Source of the DNA: Thermoguttaceae bacterium
Lineage (GTDB): Bacteria; Planctomycetota; Planctomycetia; Pirellulales; Thermoguttaceae
DNA: 36,220 bases
Assembly: GCA_045651945.1 (NCBI GenBank)
Contig: JAZRTH010000049.1
Span: 1-36,220 of the forward strand
Reading direction: 5' to 3'
The notes beneath the pieces are model-generated. The model saw only the letters and a list, made by a program, of their open reading frames with translations, searched no databases and had not been told where the DNA came from. Below, piece by piece: positions 24,188-36,220 of the stretch (position 1 is the first letter of the stretch; each line of letters opens with the position of its first letter). The position numbers and the translations under genes were made by a program.

Positions 24188-25534
24188 TCAACAGTCCCAC
24201 GGACCGTAAACGGCTTTGACGGTCATGGATTCGTCGTTGGCGGTGAGATAATAAACCTTGTACTTTGTTCCGCCGTCGTAGGCTTTGACGACAACGTGTC
24301 CGCCGCGTTTGACGATTTCGTTTGTCCATGGCTGTTGGTTGATGGTTTGAATTTCGTTTGGATTGTAAACCGTTGGGCAGATAAGGCGGTCGCCTTGATA
24401 CAGTTCCTGAGACGTCATGGAAGGCAGCGTTTTCATATTGACCTGGGAACGGCTCCAGACGTTTTGAACGTAGACGTGGGCTTGCAGTTCCTTGACGAAT
24501 TCCGGACGCATGGCGTCTTTAAATCCGTGATGGTTCGCCTTACAGACGTGAACTTTCCCAACGATCTTTCCCGTCATGGCTTCGTAGCCGATGTCTTTCC
24601 CGCCGTTGTCTTTTACAACGCCGCTATAGTCGCCGGCGGTGAAGAACCGGAACTTCCCGTAAGAAAGACGCAACCCGATGCTGAACAGGTTCTCGTTCGC
24701 GCCGGGTCTGTCGTTGTGCGGGTACTTGAGAAACAGGTTTTCCGTCGCCAGCTCAACGTCCGGATTGAACTCGTCTTCCGGCTTCGGGGCTTCCGTACAC
24801 AGCGTTCCGTTTCCGCAAACGTTAAGAATCTGAAACTGTCCCTTGAACTTGTCCGGCGACTTTTTGAGAACAATCTGATTCCCGCGTCCGACCACAAACG
24901 GGGTTCGTTTCAGCCCGTTCGTCTTTTCCTGATACTGGACGAACTTGAGCCAGTTGTGAATTTCGCCCTGACGCATCGCGGTAACAGGCGCGGTGTAATC
25001 TGGATACGAGCGGTCGAAGACCTCGTCAAAATGAATGAACTCCGCCACTTGAGCCAAGCCGGAAAGACGGTAATCTTCCCCGCGCCCGGACGTCATTTCA
25101 TTGTGTTCGTAATTGTTTCCGCAATGGTCGCCATGGAAATGCGAACACATCATATAATCGACGTGATCCCCAGCCGGATTGACGCGCTTGATATACCGCG
25201 CCACCCATTCCCCGGCGTGCCTGGTATTGTCTGGCAAGACAGGAATGCCTTGCCGCGGGGGAACGTCGCCGGTGTCGATAAGAATCGACGTGCCGTCCGG
25301 GAAAATATGATAGCACGATTCCGACAGCCCCGTATAGATGAAATGCAGATCGAGGTCGCCCTCTTTCCAGCCTGCGTACGGCTTGCCGGTTTCCGGACTT
25401 TCGGACGGCGTCGGCTCAGGAACGGCGTCTTCCGCCCGGCAAGACTCAACGCCTCCCAGCTGAGAAATAACAAACGGCGCGGCTATGCACTGACCCAAAA
25501 ACAAACGGCGGGATAATGATTTGCGTTTACGCAT
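24188..25534 (-). CDS. MBL-fold metallo-hydrolase, Tat-exported
   Basis: Tat signal SRRLFLGQCIAAPF. HxHxDH motif (SHFHGDHCG). Later His residues (ANHHG). Confidence 0.8.
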   Translation of the reverse strand: MRKRKSLSRRLFLGQCIAAPFVISQLGGVESCRAEDAVPEPTPSESPETGKPYAGWKEGDLDLHFIYTGLSESCYHIFPDGTSILIDTGDVPPRQGIPVLPDNTRHAGEWVARYIKRVNPAGDHVDYMMCSHFHGDHCGNNYEHNEMTSGRGEDYRLSGLAQVAEFIHFDEVFDRSYPDYTAPVTAMRQGEIHNWLKFVQYQEKTNGLKRTPFVVGRGNQIVLKKSPDKFKGQFQILNVCGNGTLCTEAPKPEDEFNPDVELATENLFLKYPHNDRPGANENLFSIGLRLSYGKFRFFTAGDYSGVVKDNGGKDIGYEAMTGKIVGKVHVCKANHHGFKDAMRPEFVKELQAHVYVQNVWSRSQVNMKTLPSMTSQELYQGDRLICPTVYNPNEIQTINQQPWTNEIVKRGGHVVVKAYDGGTKYKVYYLTANDESMTVKAVYGPWDC

Positions 25535-27321: not shown

Positions 27322-27500
27322 TTGAAAATACTCCTTGGTAAAATATAAGGGTAAATGAGTTTATACTTCTACGTGAACTCTTATGTTCAATTATACCCAC
27401 AAAAAATTTTTTTGGAATACCCTTGTCAGAAATTATACAATAATATTCTGTTTACTTTGGAAAAATGAAGGCAAAAGACGTCTGACGCCAACGAAACGCC

Positions 27501-28088
27501 TTATCGGTTGTAGACGACATTGTTCAGTCCGTAAATAAATCCGTAGTTTTTTCCATTGATAACATTGCTTATTCCGCTAACCGTTCCGTTGTTATTGCCG
27601 GTTATAACGTTTCCGGTCCCTTCGACTACCCCGTAGTTATGCCCTTCCAAGACATTATTCACCCCGCAAATTCTGCCGTAATTGTTGCCAACAATCCGAT
27701 TGCAGCTGCCATTTACACATTCATTAGGAGCGCCAGAAAGGCGGATATTAGCGCTGCAGACATTGTAAACGGCGGGATATACCACCGGAATGACGGGAAT
27801 GACAGGAACCACGGGGATCACCGGAACGACAGGAACGACCCGTCTTACCGGTCTGGAAACGCTGCGGGTTACGCTGGTTCTGGTTTGGCGCGGACGGCTG
27901 ACAGGACGGCTCCCGGATGACGCTGGACGCGGCTGTGCCGGACGAGGCGGAGTCGGATAAGGAGTCGCTTGACGCGGCGGAGCTGGAGGCGGCGTTGTTT
28001 TCGGTTTGAGCGTAATTCTGCCGTCTGGGTGAACCTGATATTCGCCATTCCCGGAAGAGCTGCTGTTTTGATTTGAATAGTTAGTCAT
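27501..28088 (-). CDS. Pro/Arg-rich protein with (V/I)PV triplet run and 4-5 x 15-aa Asn/Gly repeat (predicted beta-solenoid)
   Basis: Last gene of the operon. Its ATG overlaps the upstream stop by 8 nt (ATGACTAA). aa 31-83 are Pro/Arg/Ser-rich. aa 84-104 read VVPVVPVIPVVPVIPVIPVVY. aa 119-193 are repeats of the form G-x-N-x-G-x-[VI]-x-G-x-x-N-V-[IL]-x. Confidence 0.75.
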   Translation of the reverse strand: MTNYSNQNSSSSGNGEYQVHPDGRITLKPKTTPPPAPPRQATPYPTPPRPAQPRPASSGSRPVSRPRQTRTSVTRSVSRPVRRVVPVVPVIPVVPVIPVIPVVYPAVYNVCSANIRLSGAPNECVNGSCNRIVGNNYGRICGVNNVLEGHNYGVVEGTGNVITGNNNGTVSGISNVINGKNYGFIYGLNNVVYNR

Positions 28089-28368
28089 TGGATTGATTTT
28101 GTTGTTTCACAGGATTTTCAATAACCGGCAATTGTTCCTGCAATTCCTGAATTTGCTGTTGAAGCTCGATTTTATCGGAATACAGTTTACATGTAAAATA
28201 CAGGGAAACAAATAACCCTATTGCAAATAGAGCTGTTAAAATGCCCAGCGCCCATGTAAGACACAAATGTTCTGCCATATCTTGACAAAAGTCTTTTTGT
28301 TCGCGAGACATTTCTCCCCAATTGTCTCCCGCCATATACATGGCAATCATTCGATATAAACGTTCCAT
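28081..28368 (-). CDS. Small single-pass membrane protein with C-terminal coiled coil (95 aa)
   Basis: TM helix LTWALGILTALFAIGLFVSLYF followed by KIELQQQIQELQEQL. It starts 2 nt after the JAB-E1 stop and overlaps the next gene by 8 nt. Confidence 0.7.
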   Translation of the reverse strand: MERLYRMIAMYMAGDNWGEMSREQKDFCQDMAEHLCLTWALGILTALFAIGLFVSLYFTCKLYSDKIELQQQIQELQEQLPVIENPVKQQNQSND

Positions 28369-28370
28369 TT

Positions 28371-30245
28371 CTATTCCTCCTCGGTTGACATATCTTTACT
28401 TTCTGACGTCTGAGCGTTTTCCGTACTGATATGGATATTTGTCGTAATCGTCAGCGGATGGTTAAACCACAGATCGTCTTCTGTACAAGTGTTGCAAATC
28501 AGCGTAAGCTGGGTCAAACGGTTGAGCGCGCGCGGCGTGTAATTGGGATTGTCCCGATTGAGAATGTCCAGCGCCAGCTTGACCGCAATTATCGTAATAA
28601 AGTCGATGTCGGCTGCAATTCCCGGCTCAAACGAGACTTTTTCCAGCTCGGCTTCCGTCGTGTAAAAGCGTCTGTTTTGAGTTACTCTTTGAGAAACGGG
28701 AGCAATGCACTTCAGATAGTCAGCGTAGTCCGGCATGCCCGTTGGAAGACAATAGAAAATCTCGCCGGCGTGAGCGCGCTCCCAACAACCGACCGAAATA
28801 AAGGCTGAATTCAGCTCTTTCGCCAGCTGGCAGGCGTACAAGTCGCCTTCCCGATTGTCCGCCCCGCCGATAAAGACCGTGTTCTCGTCACAGAAGTCGT
28901 TAAGAAGCTGCAGCGGGGCGCGTTCAATGGCGTCGTGAACTGTCAGAACTTCCGCATACGGATTGATTTGCTCAATTCGATCTTTCAGACAATCCGTTTT
29001 ATATCTGCCAACGTCCAGCGCCCCGCACTGATGGCGGCAAAGATTATGATAACCCAGAATATCAGAGTCAATCAGAAGAAAGCGCCCAACTCCAGATCGG
29101 GCAAGCTCCAGCGCCGCCAAAGAACCTACAGAACCGCAGCCAATCAAAACCGCCTTTTTAGACAGCATGACGTCCGATTCCAAAATGCCGACGTTTCGAG
29201 AAAACACGTCCAGTTTAAGACTATAGCGATCCAAGACGCACTCTTTGAGATCCAACAAAGAAACAAGAACCAGGCCATTCTCGTTACGATAGCCCAGAAC
29301 AGAGCGTTCCGTCAACCCTTCTTCCTGGAAAATCGCTTGAGCGGGTTCTGTCAACATGGAAACGTTAAACCGGGGACGACCCTGCTGTGACGTCAACGCC
29401 TGCTTGAGCAGTTTTAGATTTAATGCTCCGTTTTCGATTCCAGAAGCGTCGTTCTGGAACTGAATCGCCGATGCGTCCTTAAAAGGCGATTCTTCAAAGA
29501 CGCATCCGATTTTTTCCACCTTTTGAATCAAACCGGAATCCGGCGCCACGACGTTGAAGTAGTTCGTTTCCGGAGAATAAATCCCGTAAAGCGGTCCGAC
29601 GTAATTCTCTTCAAGACTCGTCGGAAACGCAGCCGTCGGATTTCGTCGATAGACGTTATCCGCCGCTTCGTCAGAGTCGTCTTCGGATTCCGTGAGCTCG
29701 TCGTCCTGCGGTTCTTCTTCAGAATCAGAGGGTTCCTCCGGGCGATAATACCGCAACTGAAAATACTTTTCCGGAATGACTTCGTCGCCCGTCAAAAACG
29801 GAACTTTTTCATAAACCGGAAGCCCTGTTTCGTCAATCGTTACACGATAAACCGTCAGTCGGAATTTCGGATCGAAATTGACCAGGCAGGAAATCGCTCC
29901 GTATTCGCCGTTGAGGGCTGCAAACTTCAGATTCGTCCCGTCGTCTACGGCGGAAAAGACGTCCATGCTGCCGGGATGGCGGTGCCACAATCCCAACACG
30001 CGCGGCGGAATCTGGTACTGTTTCGCCGTTACATTGGCTGTGTAATTGACATAGAACTCATCGTATTCAAAATACGCCCATTTATTGATGGATTTGCCGC
30101 CCGGCGGAACGACGTCTGTTACAACCCACGTCCCGTTAGGGAAAAGATGCCCCAGCAGAATCCCGCCGGTTTCAACGGGATCTTTGTCAATTGCTTCGGC
30201 AACGATGGCGTTATACGCGCGGCTGGAAAAAACAACTGCGTTCAT
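28371..30245 (-). CDS. JAB/JAMM metallopeptidase fused to E1-like (ThiF/MoeB-type) adenylation domain
   Basis: N-terminus: ETGG (E25) and WHRHPGSMDVFSAVD, a complete H-x-H-x7-S-x2-D JAMM motif (aa 88-101). Acidic linker at aa 169-196. C-terminus: VLIGCGSVGSLAALELARSGVGRFLLIDSDILGYHNLCRHQ, DVGRYKTD and GGADNREG, typical of the E1/ThiF Rossmann fold. Confidence 0.88.
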   Translation of the reverse strand: MNAVVFSSRAYNAIVAEAIDKDPVETGGILLGHLFPNGTWVVTDVVPPGGKSINKWAYFEYDEFYVNYTANVTAKQYQIPPRVLGLWHRHPGSMDVFSAVDDGTNLKFAALNGEYGAISCLVNFDPKFRLTVYRVTIDETGLPVYEKVPFLTGDEVIPEKYFQLRYYRPEEPSDSEEEPQDDELTESEDDSDEAADNVYRRNPTAAFPTSLEENYVGPLYGIYSPETNYFNVVAPDSGLIQKVEKIGCVFEESPFKDASAIQFQNDASGIENGALNLKLLKQALTSQQGRPRFNVSMLTEPAQAIFQEEGLTERSVLGYRNENGLVLVSLLDLKECVLDRYSLKLDVFSRNVGILESDVMLSKKAVLIGCGSVGSLAALELARSGVGRFLLIDSDILGYHNLCRHQCGALDVGRYKTDCLKDRIEQINPYAEVLTVHDAIERAPLQLLNDFCDENTVFIGGADNREGDLYACQLAKELNSAFISVGCWERAHAGEIFYCLPTGMPDYADYLKCIAPVSQRVTQNRRFYTTEAELEKVSFEPGIAADIDFITIIAVKLALDILNRDNPNYTPRALNRLTQLTLICNTCTEDDLWFNHPLTITTNIHISTENAQTSESKDMSTEEE

Positions 30246-30310
30246 TGACGGATAAATGAAAAGGTTGCCTTGAAAACGTTAGAACTGCTTAAATCGAACC
30301 GCCGGATTAA

Positions 30311-31183
30311 TCACATGTGGTCGAATTCGCTTCGTGACATTTCTCCGGACAGCGCCAGTTCATAGCACATCAGCCATTTAACAGCCCAAAGCAAAACCGA
30401 CGCTGCAGACGTCTCCGCACGACCGCGACCGATACTGTAATCTTGTTGACGCGACGTACACAAAGACGTACCGTCTCCACTTCCAATAAGATGATGAGGC
30501 CGCCAGCCGCTCATGGAAATCAGCTGATCGATAGACGGCTTGCGGAGATACACGTGAACAGAGCCTCCCCAATTGCTGTTGCTGGGATGGTTGTTATCGT
30601 ATATCGCTTCCAGAGTCCAGTCCCATCCGTTGTCTCCTAAAACGCCGGGACGCACCTTCCCTGTCCACGACATCCGACCGTCAGGCAAAAAACGATACGT
30701 AAACTGCGGAAACGCCATCTTCATCGCAGCCACCTCCGCATGATACCGATCCGGCTCTCTTTGGTACCACTGAATTAAAGCCGCCAGTTTGCCCTTTGGA
30801 ATAACCAACGGCTGATTCGAGTCGTTAACTCTCTCGCCATTTTGATTGACGACCGTTCCGCCCGGATTGAGCCGAATCGGCTCGTCGTTGAGCATCATCT
30901 GCTTGATTTTCTGACGCAATTCTTCGTTCTTTTTCTTCTCACGGTCGCTAACGTTCGCCAGCTTGCCCCGTGGAATGACCAACGGCTCATTCGCGCCATT
31001 AATGGTTTCGCCGTTCTGGTCGATAACGCGCCCGCCAGGAACAAGGCGAATTGGCTCATCTTTCAACAACGCTTTTTTGAGCGCCTGGGGCGACGGAACC
31101 GGAAGGGTAACGTTACCGTTGTTGAGGATCGTGAACTCCGCGTCGATAATGTCGCAATCGTCGTTTTCTGATGACATTCCCAT
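30311..31183 (-). CDS. Two N-terminal tandem repeats plus a C-terminal E2/UBC-like domain (candidate)
   Basis: First gene of the operon. aa 35-75 and 93-135 are ~70 percent identical repeats (DEPIRLxPGGxVxxQNGE...PLVIPxGKLA). aa 140-290 show a helix, four strands, an HP motif, then a helix. The motifs are NNHPSNSNWGGSVHVYL and RPHHLIGSGDGTSLC. The E2 assignment is pattern-based. Confidence 0.5.
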   Translation of the reverse strand: MGMSSENDDCDIIDAEFTILNNGNVTLPVPSPQALKKALLKDEPIRLVPGGRVIDQNGETINGANEPLVIPRGKLANVSDREKKKNEELRQKIKQMMLNDEPIRLNPGGTVVNQNGERVNDSNQPLVIPKGKLAALIQWYQREPDRYHAEVAAMKMAFPQFTYRFLPDGRMSWTGKVRPGVLGDNGWDWTLEAIYDNNHPSNSNWGGSVHVYLRKPSIDQLISMSGWRPHHLIGSGDGTSLCTSRQQDYSIGRGRAETSAASVLLWAVKWLMCYELALSGEMSRSEFDHM

Positions 31184-31338
31184 TGATTTTTGCCCTTTCT
31201 AAACAGGTTGTTAAAAAATTGACAAAACCCAATATTTGTTTTCAACTACTAAATACGAAATTTCAAGGTTGTTCGTTACCAAAATAATTCATTTTTTCTA
31301 AAAAAATAATTTTTTCCTCAAAAATGCCATTGGGGGGC

Positions 31339-31366
31339 TTGATAATCGACAACTTCAGACTATAAT
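31339..31366 (+). promoter_or_regulatory. Sigma70-type promoter for the plus-strand secreted-protein pair
   Basis: TTGATA (31339-31344), 16-nt spacer, TATAAT (31361-31366), about 190 nt upstream of the ATG at 31559. GAAGGA lies 8-13 nt before that ATG. Confidence 0.5.
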
Positions 31367-31558
31367 ATTAGTAATAAAACTATAAGGCGTCAATCCTTGT
31401 AAGCGTTATTGGTTTTTGAGGTTTCTTTATATTGTGCGTGGATAATCTCCGATTAAATCGTACTTTAAAGAAAGTACTCCTTTTTTCAGCTTTCTCTGTA
31501 AGCCTTTTCATGCTCCTCAGAGAACGAACGTTACCGATTAAAAGAAGGAAACAGAATT

Positions 31559-33448
31559 ATGTTGTCGCTAAACCGCAAGAACATTGGATTTTTGTTGAGC
31601 GTTGCAGCTCTTTTGACTGCCGTTTCGTTTACTACTGCTGTTAATGCAGACAGTAAAACTTCCAAAACGCGCGATAATAAGACCGTAGTCGTCGGCGCCC
31701 CATCTACAAATCTGACGCCGGCTCAAAAGTTCTTCGAGAACATGTCTCCAGATGAGTTCAGAGATCCCGTTGCAATGGACGACTTTATCACCCGGTTCCC
31801 GGATTCTCCCGAAGCGAATGCCGTGTTTGCAATTCGTTTTTCACTTTTGGAAAGATTCCCTACCATCGAAGGCTATAACGATTTTATTAAAAAGTACCCC
31901 GGCAGACTTCAAACGCAAATTGCCATTCAGAAAGTCTTCGACCTGTATTGCAATCAGAACTGCGCTGCCGGATACTACGAGTTTATTAAATTATACCCTG
32001 ATACCGAACAATCTCTGGTTGCCATGCTCTACATTCAAGAGATTATGTTCCAGTACGCTTGTCAGCAGGACAAGGTTGAAGAATACGACGCTTTCATTGA
32101 AGCGTTCCCCAATGCGATACAAGTTAACGAAGCGAGAGAGCGGGCAATTTTAAAAGCTAAAAAGCTGGAAACCGCAGAGTTGGAAAAGCTGTTTAACGAA
32201 GATAAAGATTTGGAACGAAAAAATGTTGAAAAGTCTTTGTACGAAAAAAAACAGAAGTTTGAAAATGATTGTTATAAATATTCTGGATTGCCAGCTTCGT
32301 CTAATGTCAGCGAGACTCAAAAAGTTTTGCAGCTTTTCAGCTTAGATCGCACCTACCAGGTATTGCGAGACGTTTACGGTAAATACAATCGCGATAATTA
32401 TCCAGAGGACGACAAAAAGAAAGATAAAATCGAAGAATACCTTAAAGATATTCAAAACAGCATTGATAAGGTCGTACTGAATAATACGATAGAGAAGGCT
32501 ATCAGTCAGGTTATCGATACGATTAACGCAAATCATCAGGCGCTTATTAATGAATTGGAAAAAGTGTCTAATGACATCGGCGCCAAGCTGGATAACATTG
32601 CCAACAAATTGGACAACATTGCCAGCGTTCAAAAAGAAGTGTTGGCAAATCTTAAAAATGGTTTCAATGAGCTTCATAGAGATTTAAGAAAAATCAACAG
32701 CTCAATTAAAGAAGCCAATAAACGCCTGGAGGTTTTGCATACTTTAAATAAACGTCTTGACAATATCGCTGTTCAAATGCAAAGCATGGTTTTGTCAAAT
32801 AACTCTGTGCCAATGCCGAGCTTGGAAAGAATCAACAAATACGCGGAAAAATTTAAACCGGATATGCCCTTTGTTGAATTTCGCGGCCAATCCGCAACAC
32901 CCATGGATCAATTGGAAAATATTGCCCGACGCGGTTGTGGACTTCTTAAGGACGTCAGCTTCAGCTTTGGCAACATTAAAAATAAGATAATCGAAACGAT
33001 AACGATATGGAAAACCGATTATCCAAACAACAGCACGTCAGTTGGCAGATTTCTTGGAAAGCTTGTGGAAGGAACCGTTCGTCTCGTTCCTGTTGTCGGA
33101 CCATATATTGCCCCGGTAGCCGGCAATTTGACGCAGTATTTCATTGACGACCTGTTTATCCCTTACATTTCAGAATTGATTGACATTGTTAAGGACGACA
33201 TTCAATTGTGCATTGAAATCTTTGAAGAATACAAAGAAAAGCTTATAAGATTCGTCAAGGACATGTCAGACGGAAAACTTCCCCCTGCTTTGCAGGAGAT
33301 TTTTAACAAAAAAATGGAAACCCTCAAAGACATGAAAGAGGCCGTAACTGTCATTCGAGATAATTTTATCAGGCTGCTTAAAGACGTTGCCGAATTCTTT
33401 GATCTTGATCCCACAGTAATTTTGTATGAGATTTGTTACCTTGACTGA
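31559..33448 (+). CDS. Secreted protein: four xxFIxxYP helical repeats, long coiled coil, unknown C-terminal domain
   Basis: Signal peptide MLSLNRKNIGFLLSVAALLTAVSFTTAVNA. Repeats DDFITRFPDSPEA, NDFIKKYPGRLQT, YEFIKLYPDTEQS and DAFIEAFPNAIQV. Heptad-like Asn/Lys/Leu-rich centre (KLDNIANKLDNIASVQKEV). AT-rich codon usage. Confidence 0.7.
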   Translation: MLSLNRKNIGFLLSVAALLTAVSFTTAVNADSKTSKTRDNKTVVVGAPSTNLTPAQKFFENMSPDEFRDPVAMDDFITRFPDSPEANAVFAIRFSLLERFPTIEGYNDFIKKYPGRLQTQIAIQKVFDLYCNQNCAAGYYEFIKLYPDTEQSLVAMLYIQEIMFQYACQQDKVEEYDAFIEAFPNAIQVNEARERAILKAKKLETAELEKLFNEDKDLERKNVEKSLYEKKQKFENDCYKYSGLPASSNVSETQKVLQLFSLDRTYQVLRDVYGKYNRDNYPEDDKKKDKIEEYLKDIQNSIDKVVLNNTIEKAISQVIDTINANHQALINELEKVSNDIGAKLDNIANKLDNIASVQKEVLANLKNGFNELHRDLRKINSSIKEANKRLEVLHTLNKRLDNIAVQMQSMVLSNNSVPMPSLERINKYAEKFKPDMPFVEFRGQSATPMDQLENIARRGCGLLKDVSFSFGNIKNKIIETITIWKTDYPNNSTSVGRFLGKLVEGTVRLVPVVGPYIAPVAGNLTQYFIDDLFIPYISELIDIVKDDIQLCIEIFEEYKEKLIRFVKDMSDGKLPPALQEIFNKKMETLKDMKEAVTVIRDNFIRLLKDVAEFFDLDPTVILYEICYLD

Positions 33449-33499
33449 TTTCGTTCCTTTGTCGTAATAGTTTAAGCATTTGCACTATTAAACAATATC

Positions 33500-35215
33500 A
33501 TGATGAATCGATTTTTACCAACCATTTTACTCATCGCGCTGTTGGGAGCCGGTAGCGCTTTTGCCCAACAATCCCCAGATGAAGCGTCTGGCAAATTGTT
33601 AGGTTACATGAGCGCATCGGCATCGTCAGGAGAACTGAAAAGCGCTACTATGACGTGTACACGGGACGGAGGAACGTTTGAAAAATTGGAGAATGACGAC
33701 TCTGTTCTTAAACTGTCTCGAGGCGATTTTATAGAATTTGGCTTCACGCTTCCTGCAACGGCATATAACGTTGACGTTACAATTAAATATCTCGATGAAA
33801 ACGAGGGGAATCCTTGTTTCATTCGCTGGAACAACGTCAATCCTCCAGAAGAAAAAGCTGTGGTTAAACCGCCCAAGAAAATAGAGAATCTGTGTTACAA
33901 AACCTACACAATTATTGAACCGCCCCGTTTTAATACAATCCGAGTTGTCGGCGAAGGAAACAATGGGCTGAAATTTTATAATATTCAGGTTAAATTTAAT
34001 TATGACAAACCGGCGTCACAGCCCACCAAAGATAACTTTAAAATTACGCTTGACTCGCCAGACCCGACCAAATCCATTGACAATGTCGATTTAACATTCA
34101 AGTGGACTGGAACAGGCAAACCTCCTGTCGACGGCGGATTTATTGAGCTGCAATATCGAGACAAAGACGATTGGAAAACTGTACCAGGAGCTGAATATAT
34201 CGATATTGAGCCTGAGGGTTCTGCTAATGGCGAATTTGTCTGGAAAAAACATGGATTAACTGAAATGCCGGATTTCAAAGTTATCTTTACTGCCGGACCG
34301 TCGCCGATTAAAAATTCTAACGCTGCGTTTGATAAAGGCGTTTACAACGAATCTTTGTATTGGATTCAACAGGCGCTGCAGAGTTTTCCTGACAAGAAGG
34401 AATATAAAGACCGAAGAATCGAATGTCTCAGAGCGTTAAATCCGTTTAATACAGAATGTCGCAAAATGGGAGATGTAATATCCGTTGAAATCGACGGGGT
34501 TGAGTTTAAATTTGTCTATATCGCGAATGATAAGGATGATTTTTTTATGGGTCCCTTATCGAATGACAATAAAAAGAACAGCGACGCTTTTCGACATCCC
34601 GTCAAGTTATCCAGAGGATATTGGATTTTGAATCAGGAAGTTTCCCGGAAACAATGGGATATAATCATGTCAAGTAATCCGAGTTTTCTTTTTTCAAAAG
34701 AAACCAACCCCGAAAAGCTTCCTGTTCAGAATGTTTCATGGGAAGATTGTAATGAATTCTGTAAACAATTCTACGACAGATTCCGGGATTACTATAAGGA
34801 TGATAAAATCAAATTGACAACGACGGTTTCGCTTCCCACTGAGGCGCAATGGGAATTCGCTTGTCGAAAAGGGGGACCGCTTTCATCAAAAGCCATCCAT
34901 TACAATACAAATAAATTACTTGGCGCGCCTCCCACAATTGGCGTTACGGATAAAAGCGCCAACTCGTTAGGCGTTTTTGGCATGCAGGGCAACGTTGCAG
35001 AATGGTGCTATGACGGTTACGCTCCATACCAAAAAACCACTCAAAATGATCCCAAAGGAAATGAAAAAACTTCATTGAAAGTTGTCCGAGGCGGAAGCTG
35101 CAACTCAAGTCAGGACGATTGTCGAGCTACCGCAAGAGACAAAAAAAATAAAGACGAAAAAGACAAGTATATTGGCTTCCGCTTTGTTGTAAACTTCGAC
35201 AATATTCAACAATAA
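33500..35215 (+). CDS. Secreted protein with C-terminal FGE-sulfatase (SUMF1/EgtB/PvdO-type) domain
   Basis: Signal peptide MMNRFLPTILLIALLGAGSAFAQ. C-terminal motifs VSWEDCNEFCKQF, GVFGMQGNVAEWCYDGY, VVRGGSCNSSQDDCRATARD and IGFRFVV. The N-terminal ~330 aa are beta-rich and unassigned. Confidence 0.8.
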   Translation: MMNRFLPTILLIALLGAGSAFAQQSPDEASGKLLGYMSASASSGELKSATMTCTRDGGTFEKLENDDSVLKLSRGDFIEFGFTLPATAYNVDVTIKYLDENEGNPCFIRWNNVNPPEEKAVVKPPKKIENLCYKTYTIIEPPRFNTIRVVGEGNNGLKFYNIQVKFNYDKPASQPTKDNFKITLDSPDPTKSIDNVDLTFKWTGTGKPPVDGGFIELQYRDKDDWKTVPGAEYIDIEPEGSANGEFVWKKHGLTEMPDFKVIFTAGPSPIKNSNAAFDKGVYNESLYWIQQALQSFPDKKEYKDRRIECLRALNPFNTECRKMGDVISVEIDGVEFKFVYIANDKDDFFMGPLSNDNKKNSDAFRHPVKLSRGYWILNQEVSRKQWDIIMSSNPSFLFSKETNPEKLPVQNVSWEDCNEFCKQFYDRFRDYYKDDKIKLTTTVSLPTEAQWEFACRKGGPLSSKAIHYNTNKLLGAPPTIGVTDKSANSLGVFGMQGNVAEWCYDGYAPYQKTTQNDPKGNEKTSLKVVRGGSCNSSQDDCRATARDKKNKDEKDKYIGFRFVVNFDNIQQ

Positions 35216-35342: not shown

Positions 35343-36220
35343 CTACGCTTTTTCCCAGGTTGTCGTTTTGTCCGGGCGGTCTTCCAGTTTGACGCCCAGT
35401 TCTTTCAGCGCGTCGCGAATCAGGTCGCTTGTCGCCCAGTCTTTGTTCTGTCGGGCGTTGGCGCGAATCCGAATAATCAGGTTCATCAAGCCGTCAACGA
35501 GCGAGTTGTCTTCGGCGCTGTCGTCCTGACCGGCTTTCTTGGGCGGTTCGAGGAACAGACCCAAAGCCCCCGCCAGTTCGCGGAACGTCTTGACGCCCTG
35601 AACGAGCTGCGCGACGGCTTCCGGCGTTGGAGCGGTTTCCAGTTTCTGGTCGTCGATGAACTTGTTGAGCTTCTTGAGCAGGTCGAACAGCTCGGCGATT
35701 CCCGCGCCGGTGTTGAAGTCGTCGTCCATGGCGTCGAGGAACGTCTTTCGGCTTTGCGCGACCGCTTGCAACAGTTCCGACTGACCCGGATCGAACTCGC
35801 CGGCGTCGCGGGTTTTGGCGAATTCCGTCTGATAGAATTTCGTTCCCGTAACGCGGTCAAAGCGTTTGAAGAATCGATAGAACGCTTCCAAGCCGGTTTG
35901 GACTTCTTCGATGCGTCTGACGGAATAGTCAATCGGACGTCTATAATGAGTTGACAGCAGGAAGAAACGAATCGTTTCGCCGGCAAACGTCTTGAGCATG
36001 TCGCGGAACGGAACAGAGCCTTTGGACTTGCTGATTTTACCGGCTTCCTGCGAGGCGATGTCGCCTTCTTTGGCTTCCGGAGCGTCTGCCGCCTTGGTCT
36101 TGCGTCCGCCGACTTTTCCGATTTCGTCCGACGCCTGCATCAGACCGTTGTGCATCCAGTATTTGACGTACGGTTTGCCGCTGCGCGCTTCCGACTGGGC
36201 GATTTCGTTTTCGTGGTGCG
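35343..36220 (-). CDS. cysS: Cysteine--tRNA ligase, C-terminal part (5' end outside the window)
   Basis: The reading frame is open to the window edge. It contains HHENEIAQSEA, the KMSKS-type loop KISKSKG and LRFFLLSTHYRRPIDYS, characteristic of class I CysRS. Confidence 0.9.
   Translation of the reverse strand, partial: HHENEIAQSEARSGKPYVKYWMHNGLMQASDEIGKVGGRKTKAADAPEAKEGDIASQEAGKISKSKGSVPFRDMLKTFAGETIRFFLLSTHYRRPIDYSVRRIEEVQTGLEAFYRFFKRFDRVTGTKFYQTEFAKTRDAGEFDPGQSELLQAVAQSRKTFLDAMDDDFNTGAGIAELFDLLKKLNKFIDDQKLETAPTPEAVAQLVQGVKTFRELAGALGLFLEPPKKAGQDDSAEDNSLVDGLMNLIIRIRANARQNKDWATSDLIRDALKELGVKLEDRPDKTTTWEKA

Follow-up and report, generated by a model that had tools for sequence, protein, structure and literature searches.

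Gene content of the locus

This analysis concerns a compact operon on the minus strand of a 36,220-nt stretch of DNA (the window) from a Thermoguttaceae bacterium (assembly GCA_045651945.1, contig JAZRTH010000049.1), where it occupies positions 27501-31183. According to the open reading frame (ORF) listing, it consists of g1 (31183..30311, 290 residues), g2 (30245..28371, 624 residues), g3 (28368..28081, 95 residues as the longest ORF) and g4 (28088..27501, 195 residues). The first two genes encode an E2 (ubiquitin-conjugating, UBC-like) domain and a fusion of a JAB metallopeptidase with an E1 (ubiquitin-activating) type adenylation domain. We read the locus as a complete ubiquitin-like conjugation cassette, the modifier being a module of ~45-60 residues that is encoded twice at the N-terminus of the E2 pre-protein; on the present analysis we regard this as somewhat on the probable side. 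Genes g1 and g2 are 65 nt apart, and g3 and g4 share an 8-nt overlap (ATGACTAA). These spacings, and the coordinates of the four same-strand genes, are as given in a preliminary description of this DNA, and only its 2-nt gap between g2 and g3 is doubtful (see below).

A scan of 185,579 species genomes gave 176 relatives, and 80 of these loci were fetched for the family survey that is used throughout. The ORFs of related loci are simple picks made in this analysis, clustered by BLAST. Relatives of the E1 numbered 1,587 at E ≤1e-5 among the scored candidates. One locus (L009), in a Thermoguttaceae (Planctomycetota) genome assembled from goat gut, matches the window at 92% amino-acid identity; it is referred to here as the sister genome.

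Tandem units at the N-terminus of the E2 protein

Two modifier-like units precede the E2 domain of g1. The second, which is the canonical one, spans residues 77-134 (30782..30955, minus strand) and comprises a helix, short strands and the tail PLVIPKGKLA (G131, A134). A hidden Markov model (HMM) of the unit, built without window or sister sequences, covers residues 68-134 over the full model (41.3 bits, E 1.4e-11). The first unit, residues 1-76 (30956..31183, minus strand), is divergent at its N-terminus and ends LVIPRGKLA (G73, A76); the same HMM matches it at residues 33-61 (12.9 bits), and the junction motif is found at 68-76. At the DNA level the two units are ~71% identical.

Across the family, one to three (rarely four) tandem copies of the module form the N-terminal halves of the E2 proteins, with the consensus IxIPxGKLA, helix (..KReeLkkKLleG), KkIxLxxxGxVT, loop, IsIPxGKLA. 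The final motif is the best conserved part (Gly 99-100%, Leu 99%, Ala 96%). Units within one protein have a median identity of 94%, as opposed to 36% between proteins. The AlphaFold2 predicted local distance difference test (pLDDT) score falls below 50 at both junctions of the window protein (residues 71-77 and 130-135). The most conserved residues are thus predicted to be flexible linkers, as would suit a short linear recognition or cleavage motif. Neither Pfam nor NCBIfam has a model for the unit.

The module occurs in three forms: as tandem copies fused to the E2, as a free-standing gene upstream of an E2 that lacks repeats, and as the C-terminus of a larger protein. When fused and free-standing forms are taken together, 71 of the 73 E2-bearing loci possess the module, and in both exceptions the E2 is cut by the end of the contig. 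In three loci from different phyla (Clostridia, Blautia and Solirubrobacterales) a one-unit gene lies directly upstream of a repeat-less E2. These free-standing products are 66 residues (L082, ending ...KAPEGKLA), 77 residues (L088, also ...KAPEGKLA) and 85 residues long (L083, ...IPAGKLAF), the stop codon following immediately in each.

The unit profile was also run against 1.84 billion cluster representatives, where it matched 208 proteins at E ≤0.001, 63 of them at ≤1e-10. C-termini were examined in 148 of the best matches. Twenty-seven of these end exactly at ...GKLA and a further 17 one to four residues later, while 68 have a longer extension, which is mostly an E2 (GKLA-xx-WYE) or another unit; the rest have extensions of 5-30 residues or no recognisable terminal motif. 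A few of the proteins that end at or near GKLA carry an unrelated N-terminal domain before the C-terminal unit. For two matches, one of 65 residues and one of 195 residues with a C-terminal unit, the genomic order is unit, E2-CBASS, Prok-JAB, ThiF, where CBASS stands for the cyclic oligonucleotide-based antiphage signalling system.

The E2 domain of g1

Residues 135-290 of g1 (30311..30781, minus strand) form a UBC-like E2 domain of the CBASS-E2 type. PADLOC E2 models match residues 147-278 (1.8e-9), and precomputed Pfam annotation assigns homologues of g1 to PF26395 (E2-CBASS). For residues 140-290 AlphaFold2 gives a confident model (pLDDT 85-94), which is alpha/beta and UBC-like. When full-length g1 was submitted to Foldseek, the top matches were UEV, Ube2W, UbcH7, RWD and bacterial E2 structures; since their E-values are weak (0.1-1), the assignment rests mainly on the profile matches. 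The UBC-like character that the preliminary description gave to the C-terminal half of the protein is upheld by this evidence. In an alignment of 39 E2 homologues H199, P200, H231 and C242 are invariant, and the codon of Cys242, the proposed catalytic residue, lies at 30458..30460 on the minus strand.

In most related loci the E2 terminates in a conserved FNxHGG(I/V/L), or in HxF in some lineages. The window E2 (30311-30340) and that of the sister genome have a shorter C-terminus, ...EFDHM, which has no Gly; on this ground the E2 tail was ruled out as the modifier in the window.

The JAB-E1 fusion encoded by g2

The g2 protein combines an intact JAMM motif and an intact E1/ThiF core in one polypeptide, as had been noted from the sequence and as both the motif residues and Pfam (ThiF 9.4e-22, Prok-JAB 1.5e-5) confirm. 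The JAB/JAMM metallopeptidase domain covers residues 1-165 (29751..30245, minus strand), where it is identified by the Prok-JAB match, the AlphaFold2 model and the motif itself (E25, H88, H90, S98, D101). An acidic linker, disordered in the model, follows at residues 168-199.

Between this linker and the E1 core lies a conserved alpha/beta domain (residues 200-343; 29217..29648, minus strand), which AlphaFold2 models confidently. G221, N231 and G247 are invariant in it and P208 is nearly so. The Foldseek alignment of g2 with Cap2 (7to3_A) extends over 436 columns, which is longer than the E1 core alone, and we infer that the domain may be equivalent to the Cap2 linker domain that positions the E2.

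The ThiF/MoeB-type E1 adenylation domain takes up residues 344-624 (28371..29216, minus strand), as identified by Pfam, PADLOC and structural matches, with the AlphaFold2 core placed at residues 357-605. The adenylation core is intact (G369xG371xxG374, R404, D463), and NLC403RHQC407G is also present. PADLOC models for CBASS E1-E2 proteins (Cap2) match this part at 5e-26. Among 71 E1 homologues NxCRHQCG, W488xR490A and Y528 are invariant and C499 is nearly invariant. Judging from these alignments, C499 and Y528, which lie in or beside a crossover loop predicted to be flexible (residues 519-542), are candidates for the relay residue of the E1.

The best structural match of the g2 model is Citrobacter BubCD, itself a JAB-E1 fusion (9ea4, E 5e-15, ~609 aligned columns), followed by Cap2 and then by MccB, PaaA, Uba5 and ThiF. 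All NCBIfam matches of g2 fall below their cut-offs; the best is the cap2_3 model of the 6A-MBL system (MBL, metallo-beta-lactamase), NF058523, at 101.7 bits against a cut-off of 320, and the ThiF and MoeB models fall far below theirs.

Genes g3 and g4

The g3 product is a putative small single-pass membrane or coiled-coil protein, for which Pfam gives only weak LapA/DUF2304-like matches. Its sole homologue is found in the sister genome, where the codon of Trp17 reads TGA in the midst of almost identical DNA. As GGAG also occurs 5 nt before the ATG of M20 (28309..28311), the 2-nt gap between g2 and g3 in the preliminary description is probably an artefact of taking the longest ORF. On these sequence features the true start of g3 is probably this ATG, which would give a 76-residue protein, leave the first 19 codons outside g3 and widen the g2-g3 gap to ~59 nt. 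The 57 nt before this start (28312-28368, minus strand) are almost identical in the sister genome, in which they hold a 16-codon mini-ORF (MESLYRMIAMYMAGDN, then a stop codon), followed by the GGAG and the ATG. Possibly, therefore, g2 and g3 are separated by a conserved leader or an upstream ORF.

The g4 product has four recognisable parts, namely an N-terminal YQVHPDGRITLKP segment, a Pro/Arg-rich linker, a hydrophobic PV(I/V) repeat and a Cys-containing, Asn/Gly-rich, beta-roll-like C-terminal domain. A 9/27-nt tandem repeat inside the gene (27781-27840) encodes the hydrophobic Pro-Val/Ile stretch (VVPVVPVIPVVPVIPVIPVV), which sits between the linker and the beta-roll-like domain. The best Pfam match, LbR_Ice_bind at 6e-6, is below cut-off, and only one homologue was found among 5.8 billion proteins, again in the sister genome.

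Since homologues of g3 and g4 occur in only one sister genome, the two genes are lineage-specific passengers and do not form a conserved effector class; they are the only candidates for local partners of the cassette in the Thermoguttaceae lineage. The preliminary description had expected the four genes to be conserved together, and this did not hold: the E2 and JAB-E1 pair is present in every complete locus, and g3 and g4 are confined to the window and its sister. Nor does anything in the analysis show an effector or anchor role for the g3 membrane protein, which had been suggested for it.

Flanking regions and possible transcription signals

As had been described, the operon is bounded upstream of g1 by a 375-nt AT-rich spacer (GC 0.315) and downstream by pfp, a gene of the phosphofructokinase (PFK) family (Pfam PF00365, 2.3e-42). 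Between g4 and pfp lies another AT-rich spacer of 179 nt (GC 0.318). Consensus scans of the minus strand found a terminator-like hairpin (27489..27477) directly 3' of the g4 stop and before pfp. It may mark the end of the operon, which is suggestive only, as terminator-like sites in the region are no commoner than in shuffled sequence. Promoter-like -35/-10 matches were found inside the 375-nt upstream region at 31393..31365 and 31214..31186 (minus strand); in the scanned region 12 such matches were seen and 4.4 were expected, and these are pattern matches only.

Two plus-strand genes at 31559-35215 lie between the operon and cysS (35343..36155, cut by the window end). They encode a 629-residue coiled-coil protein without a Pfam match and a 571-residue protein with an FGE-sulfatase domain, and their GC content is 0.39-0.43 compared with ~0.50 around them. 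Because cysS lies directly upstream of the E2 gene in the sister genome, a low-GC insertion of ~4 kb is suspected here. On the other side, ~2 kb downstream of the operon, the minus strand encodes a 448-residue protein of the MBL fold (24188-25534; HFHGDH) with a twin-arginine-type signal peptide; pfp and a 132-residue ORF lie between this gene and the operon.

Gene order and partner genes in the family

Apart from the sister genome, most loci come from gut Bacteroidales, including the cultured Bacteroides nordii, B. congonensis, Dysgonomonas and Prolixibacter, and others from Clostridia, Blautia, Solirubrobacterales, Anaerolineae, Victivallis and Thiomargarita. The core order E2, JAB, E1 is kept in essentially every locus, and the flanking genes vary. 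The JAB is mostly a separate gene, being fused to the E1 in few loci; where it stands alone, its product bears transmembrane segments at the C-terminus in 40 of 67 loci. What the window shares with the family is a PxGKLA module fused to, or encoded just upstream of, a Cys-type CBASS-like E2, then a JAB and a Cap2-like E1 with the motifs NLCRHQCG and CWERAxAG; the residues that are invariant in the E2 and E1 are present in the window.

Two Thermoguttaceae genomes have the cassette between cysS and pfp, and a more elaborate third version lies next to PFK. This stable position makes the Thermoguttaceae cassette look more like a case of vertical inheritance. An expanded cassette beside PFK was observed in Thermoguttaceae assembly GCA_045586185.1 (L003/L013, 4322-14457), with two E2 genes (one having two units), a 618-residue JAB with low-complexity regions and a transmembrane segment, a separate E1, a tagged transmembrane peptide (for the tag, see below), a 268-residue protein, a SpoVK/CbbX-like AAA+ ATPase and a large ankyrin-repeat protein.

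Carriage on mobile elements was also considered. No PLSDB plasmid carries the system, and 4 of 2.9 million viral contigs have a relative. Phage or plasmid carriage was rejected, as the tblastn matches were confined to Gloeothece plasmids, where the JAB alone was matched and no E1 is annotated next to it, and to a single faecal 'phage' contig that is unverified. In some Bacillota loci integrase and helix-turn-helix genes adjoin the cassette, in one case together with an Endonuclease_NS gene.

The operon neighbours are extremely variable and form 271 clusters. Recurrent partners include PrsW intramembrane proteases, dynamin-like GTPases, a FtsK/SpoIIIE ATPase of ~1100 residues with GYF_2 domains, pairs of WXG100-like proteins, DnaJ, HSP70 and AAA+ proteins, and membrane proteins of the SH3_3, DUF4234 and CD225 kinds. 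The WXG100-like partners (~90-98 residues, in pairs) and/or the FtsK/SpoIIIE ATPase stand beside the cassette in four phyla (loci L015, L024, L026, L030-L033, L038, L040, L042, L049, L050, L052, L053, L056, L058, L061, L064, L073 and L077; also L082, L083, L086, L088, L091 and L094). WXG-like partners occur in 20 loci, and the second protein of a pair often ends ...GIG, ...GLGR or ...GHGG. We found no description of such a type-VII-secretion-like context together with E1, E2 and JAB genes.

Many unrelated small membrane proteins of the Bacteroidales loci share a short hairpin-like motif, 'YxINDDGxIxR', which is placed at the start or occasionally at the end of the protein and sometimes repeated in two or three tandem copies. 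This tag is carried by 83 of 312 proteins encoded downstream of the E1 and by 16 of 863 elsewhere (27% vs 1.9%), by none in reversed sequences, and it was found in 37 of the 80 loci (e.g., L026 13034-15482, L055 12170-15344 and L058 11700-17600). Two possible extensions of this motif were rejected. The hairpin of the E2 units is not the tag, as the tag HMM scores these units at ≤2.9 bits. Nor is g4 supported as a tagged partner: its first score of 12.2 bits was discounted because g4 was among the seeds of that HMM, and HMMs without Thermoguttaceae give -1.7 and -2.4 bits, which is within background.

The 55 recurrent partner families, as searched with Pfam and PADLOC, include no CD-NTase, beta-grasp ubiquitin-like protein (Ubl), DUF6527, MBL or MoaD/ThiS, and the window operon has no CD-NTase and no beta-grasp ORF. 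The picture of a ubiquitin-type E2 and JAB-E1 without a cyclase, beta-grasp Ubl or known effector, drawn from the window sequence in the preliminary description, is supported.

The same scan bears on the possibility that the cassette is a decayed, non-functional remnant of a type II CBASS or 6A-MBL system that has lost its cyclase or MBL. One might suspect this because the best library matches are the CBASS E2 and E1-E2 models and the 6A-MBL cap2_3 model, and because a gene of the MBL fold is found 2 kb downstream. No catalytic motif is damaged, however, and the same cyclase-less layout is kept in 80 loci from several phyla at 40-64% identity, with no CD-NTase among the recurrent partners; the NCBIfam score is far below its cut-off, and the MBL protein has a Tat-type signal peptide and lies beyond pfp and another ORF. 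Decay is already disfavoured, and we regard it as very improbable.

A second possibility is that the E1 performs MccB/PaaA- or MoeB-like chemistry on the GKLA peptide (maturation or sulfur transfer) and that the E2-like protein is only a scaffold. The E1 domain does match MccB, PaaA, TcdA, MoeB and ThiF in sequence and in structure, and the substrates would be short peptides with a conserved C-terminus. However, MoaD, ThiS, MoaE, ThiG, export and immunity genes are not recurrent among the partners in the 80 loci, and the homologues do not adjoin MoaD/ThiS genes. The invariant Cys242 of the E2, with its flanking His residues, also argues against a mere scaffold, all three enzymes are related most closely, by profile, to components of CBASS (Cap2/Cap3) and 6A-MBL, and Bub, a proven conjugation system, likewise pairs an E2 with a JAB-E1 fusion. 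We consider such peptide chemistry improbable.

Comparison with known systems

The closest experimentally studied parallel is type I Bub (6E.1). Both have a layout of two polypeptides, one with the modifier or proposed modifier fused in front of the E2 and one with the JAB fused in front of a homodimer-type E1. In Bub, the JAB domain of BubCD cuts BubAB, in which Ubl and E2 are fused, right behind a conserved Gly; activation and transfer of the released Ubl follow (PMC11601596). The differences are several. Bub uses Ser in its E2 and Tyr in its E1 and forms oxyester intermediates, whereas the window E2 has the invariant Cys242; the crossover loop of the Bub E1 has an invariant Tyr and no Cys, whereas here C499 is nearly invariant and Y528 invariant. 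Bub includes the DUF6527 serine protease BubE, whereas DUF6527 is absent from all 80 loci. Lastly, the window module is not recognisably beta-grasp, and g2 has the extra domain of ~140 residues between its JAB and E1 parts.

In sequence, the E2, E1 and JAB are closest to Cap2 and Cap3 of type II CBASS, a relationship at the sub-family level, and both Cap3 and 6A-MBL profiles match the family JAB. The substrates of Cap2 do not belong to the beta-grasp proteins and are recognised via a short C-terminal tail; the cut made by Cap3 falls precisely behind their last residue (bioRxiv 10.1101/2022.03.31.486616). Unlike type II CBASS, the 80 loci have no CD-NTase and no cyclic-nucleotide effector. In CBASS a single protein, Cap2, unites E2 and E1 while the JAB, Cap3, stands apart, whereas the window E2 is separate and the JAB is fused to the E1; moreover, the JAB of most relatives is membrane-anchored, and in place of an enzyme the candidate substrate is a small module dedicated to this use.

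With Bil (BilABCD; 6c/6d) the resemblance is in gene order, since loci with a free-standing module run modifier, E2, JAB, E1 in the manner of bilA-B-C-D. BilA is an ISG15-like beta-grasp Ubl and BilD a multidomain E1, whereas the window has a single ThiF-type E1 domain and no beta-grasp gene, and no sequence relationship to BilA or BilD was detected. The 6A-MBL system, a triple E2-E1-JAB fusion with an MBL, supplies the best NCBIfam match of the family JABs as well as of g2; in addition to the low score of g2, its domain order and fusion differ, and no MBL gene is linked to the cassette. The MBL-fold gene at 24188-25534 was rejected as such a partner, as it lies on the far side of pfp, its product has a signal peptide, and the NCBIfam score does not come near the cut-off.

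Eukaryotic polyubiquitin and ubiquitin-fusion precursors offer a further analogy, in that they too consist of near-identical head-to-tail copies with C-terminal extensions of a few residues and of fusions that need a protease. There is no homology, the tail is PxGKLA and not LRLRGG, and the window precursor is fused to its own E2.

Operons of the E1/E2/JAB conjugation kind are known; this family falls outside the defining features of type II CBASS, Bil, Bub and 6A-MBL and has a new modifier candidate. No model for the family exists in Pfam, NCBIfam (June 2026) or PADLOC. In the searchable literature we found only the 6a-6e types, CBASS, Bil, Bub and 6A-MBL and not the architecture GKLA module, E2, JAB, E1, though an earlier bioinformatic mention is possible; a match to 'JAB' in papers on Bacteroides fragilis turned out to be the name of an author.

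The proposed modifier and its processing

In the mechanism that we propose, g1 would be a poly-precursor, and the JAB of g2 would cut it at both GKLA junctions. The cuts would most likely fall after Ala76 and Ala134, and less likely after Gly73 and Gly131; cleavage after Ala is favoured because so many free-standing forms end at the Ala of GKLA. The predicted products of the 32.4-kDa g1 protein are two small modifiers (8.1 kDa for unit 1 and 6.6 kDa for unit 2) and a 17.8-kDa E2. The Cap2-like E1 domain of g2 would adenylate the new ...GKLA C-terminus, and the modifier would pass, possibly via C499 or Y528 of the E1, to Cys242 of the E2, from which it would be transferred to amino groups on target proteins. 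The JAB of g2 may also reverse the modification as a deconjugase.

The preliminary description had supposed that either a cargo protein or a repeat of gene 1 was the conjugated moiety. The universal module and its free forms ending in GKLA favour the repeat and not the cargo. Likewise, its statement that there was 'no recognisable Ubl' remains true of known folds, while a modifier candidate has now been located inside gene 1.

Several observations weigh against the module as modifier. It has no detectable similarity to ubiquitin, ThiS or any Protein Data Bank chain (hhalign probabilities for ubiquitin and ThiS ≤0.3). The AlphaFold2 pLDDT of the unit is only 57-70, and the model runs from helix to strands, the order of which differs from a beta-grasp. 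In the first window unit the N-terminal half of the consensus is missing, as its partial HMM match indicates. Some module proteins run on into other sequence after GKLA, and those that end at GKLA could also have arisen by simple gene fission at a domain boundary. Finally, the FNxHGG(I/V/L) tail of most E2s is a second conserved terminal feature that the modifier model does not explain.

Some of these points can be turned into a different account, in which the units serve the E2 as adaptors or docking modules that bind the E1, the membrane or a target and are sometimes split off, and the real substrate of the E1 is another C-terminus. This could be the conserved tail of the E2 itself, the Gly-rich end of a WXG100-like partner or the end of a protein encoded elsewhere, comparable to the CD-NTase of CBASS. 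A small alpha/beta unit without Ubl similarity, a conserved E2 tail in most loci, WXG100-like partners ending ...GIG, ...GLGR or ...GHGG in 20 loci, and gene fission as the source of the GKLA-ending proteins would all suit it. The window E2, however, ends ...EFDHM and none of the other window proteins terminates in Gly or Ala, and the WXG-like partners are present in only about one-quarter of the loci, whereas the module is universal. Furthermore, conservation within the module is highest in a tail that is predicted to be flexible and not on a folded surface, the module stands at the C-terminal end in all free-standing forms and in all forms with an N-terminal domain, and a dedicated JAB peptidase together with near-identical tandem copies fits a precursor better. 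We therefore prefer the module as modifier and consider the adaptor account unlikely, though the most serious of those weighed here.

Biological role and significance

A broader proposal is that the ~55-residue PxGKLA module is a new modifier, not detectably a beta-grasp, which is produced as a poly-precursor joined to its own E2 or from a small gene of its own and defines a further widespread family of bacterial Ubl-like conjugation systems; these would act on membrane or secretion proteins or in conflict and, in several phyla, are coupled to WXG100/FtsK type-VII-like genes. The proposal covers gut Bacteroidales, Bacillota, Planctomycetota, Actinomycetota and Chloroflexota, and we put it forward tentatively, with belief falling a little short of doubt.

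The sparse distribution (176 of ~185,000 species genomes), the rapid turnover of partners and the integrase-linked Bacillota loci suggest a role of the family in conflict or defence. The membrane-anchored JABs and the WXG100/FtsK, PrsW, dynamin and DnaJ/chaperone partners suggest that the family controls proteins of the membrane or of secretion, with the membrane or a secretion apparatus as its site of action. Both readings fit the contexts in other phyla; in Thermoguttaceae the cassette is chromosomal and syntenic.

The modifier idea is directly testable, since cultured carriers are at hand (Bacteroides nordii, B. congonensis, Dysgonomonas sp. 216 and Prolixibacter bellariivorans) and the predicted mass-spectrometric signature is a Leu-Ala remnant that adds +184.121 Da to lysine after trypsin.

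Each characterised bacterial E1/E2/JAB system (type II CBASS, Bil and Bub) has given a different answer to the question of what is conjugated. If the present reading is true, the GKLA module would be a new small protein tag used by a Cap2/ATG7-like E1 and an ATG3-like E2, the range of ubiquitin-like chemistry would be widened beyond beta-grasp proteins, and the missing component would be supplied for hundreds of 'orphan' E2-JAB-E1 operons in gut bacteria. The link to WXG100/FtsK genes and the membrane-anchored JABs hint at an unexplored tie between ubiquitin-like tagging and secretion or membrane defence.

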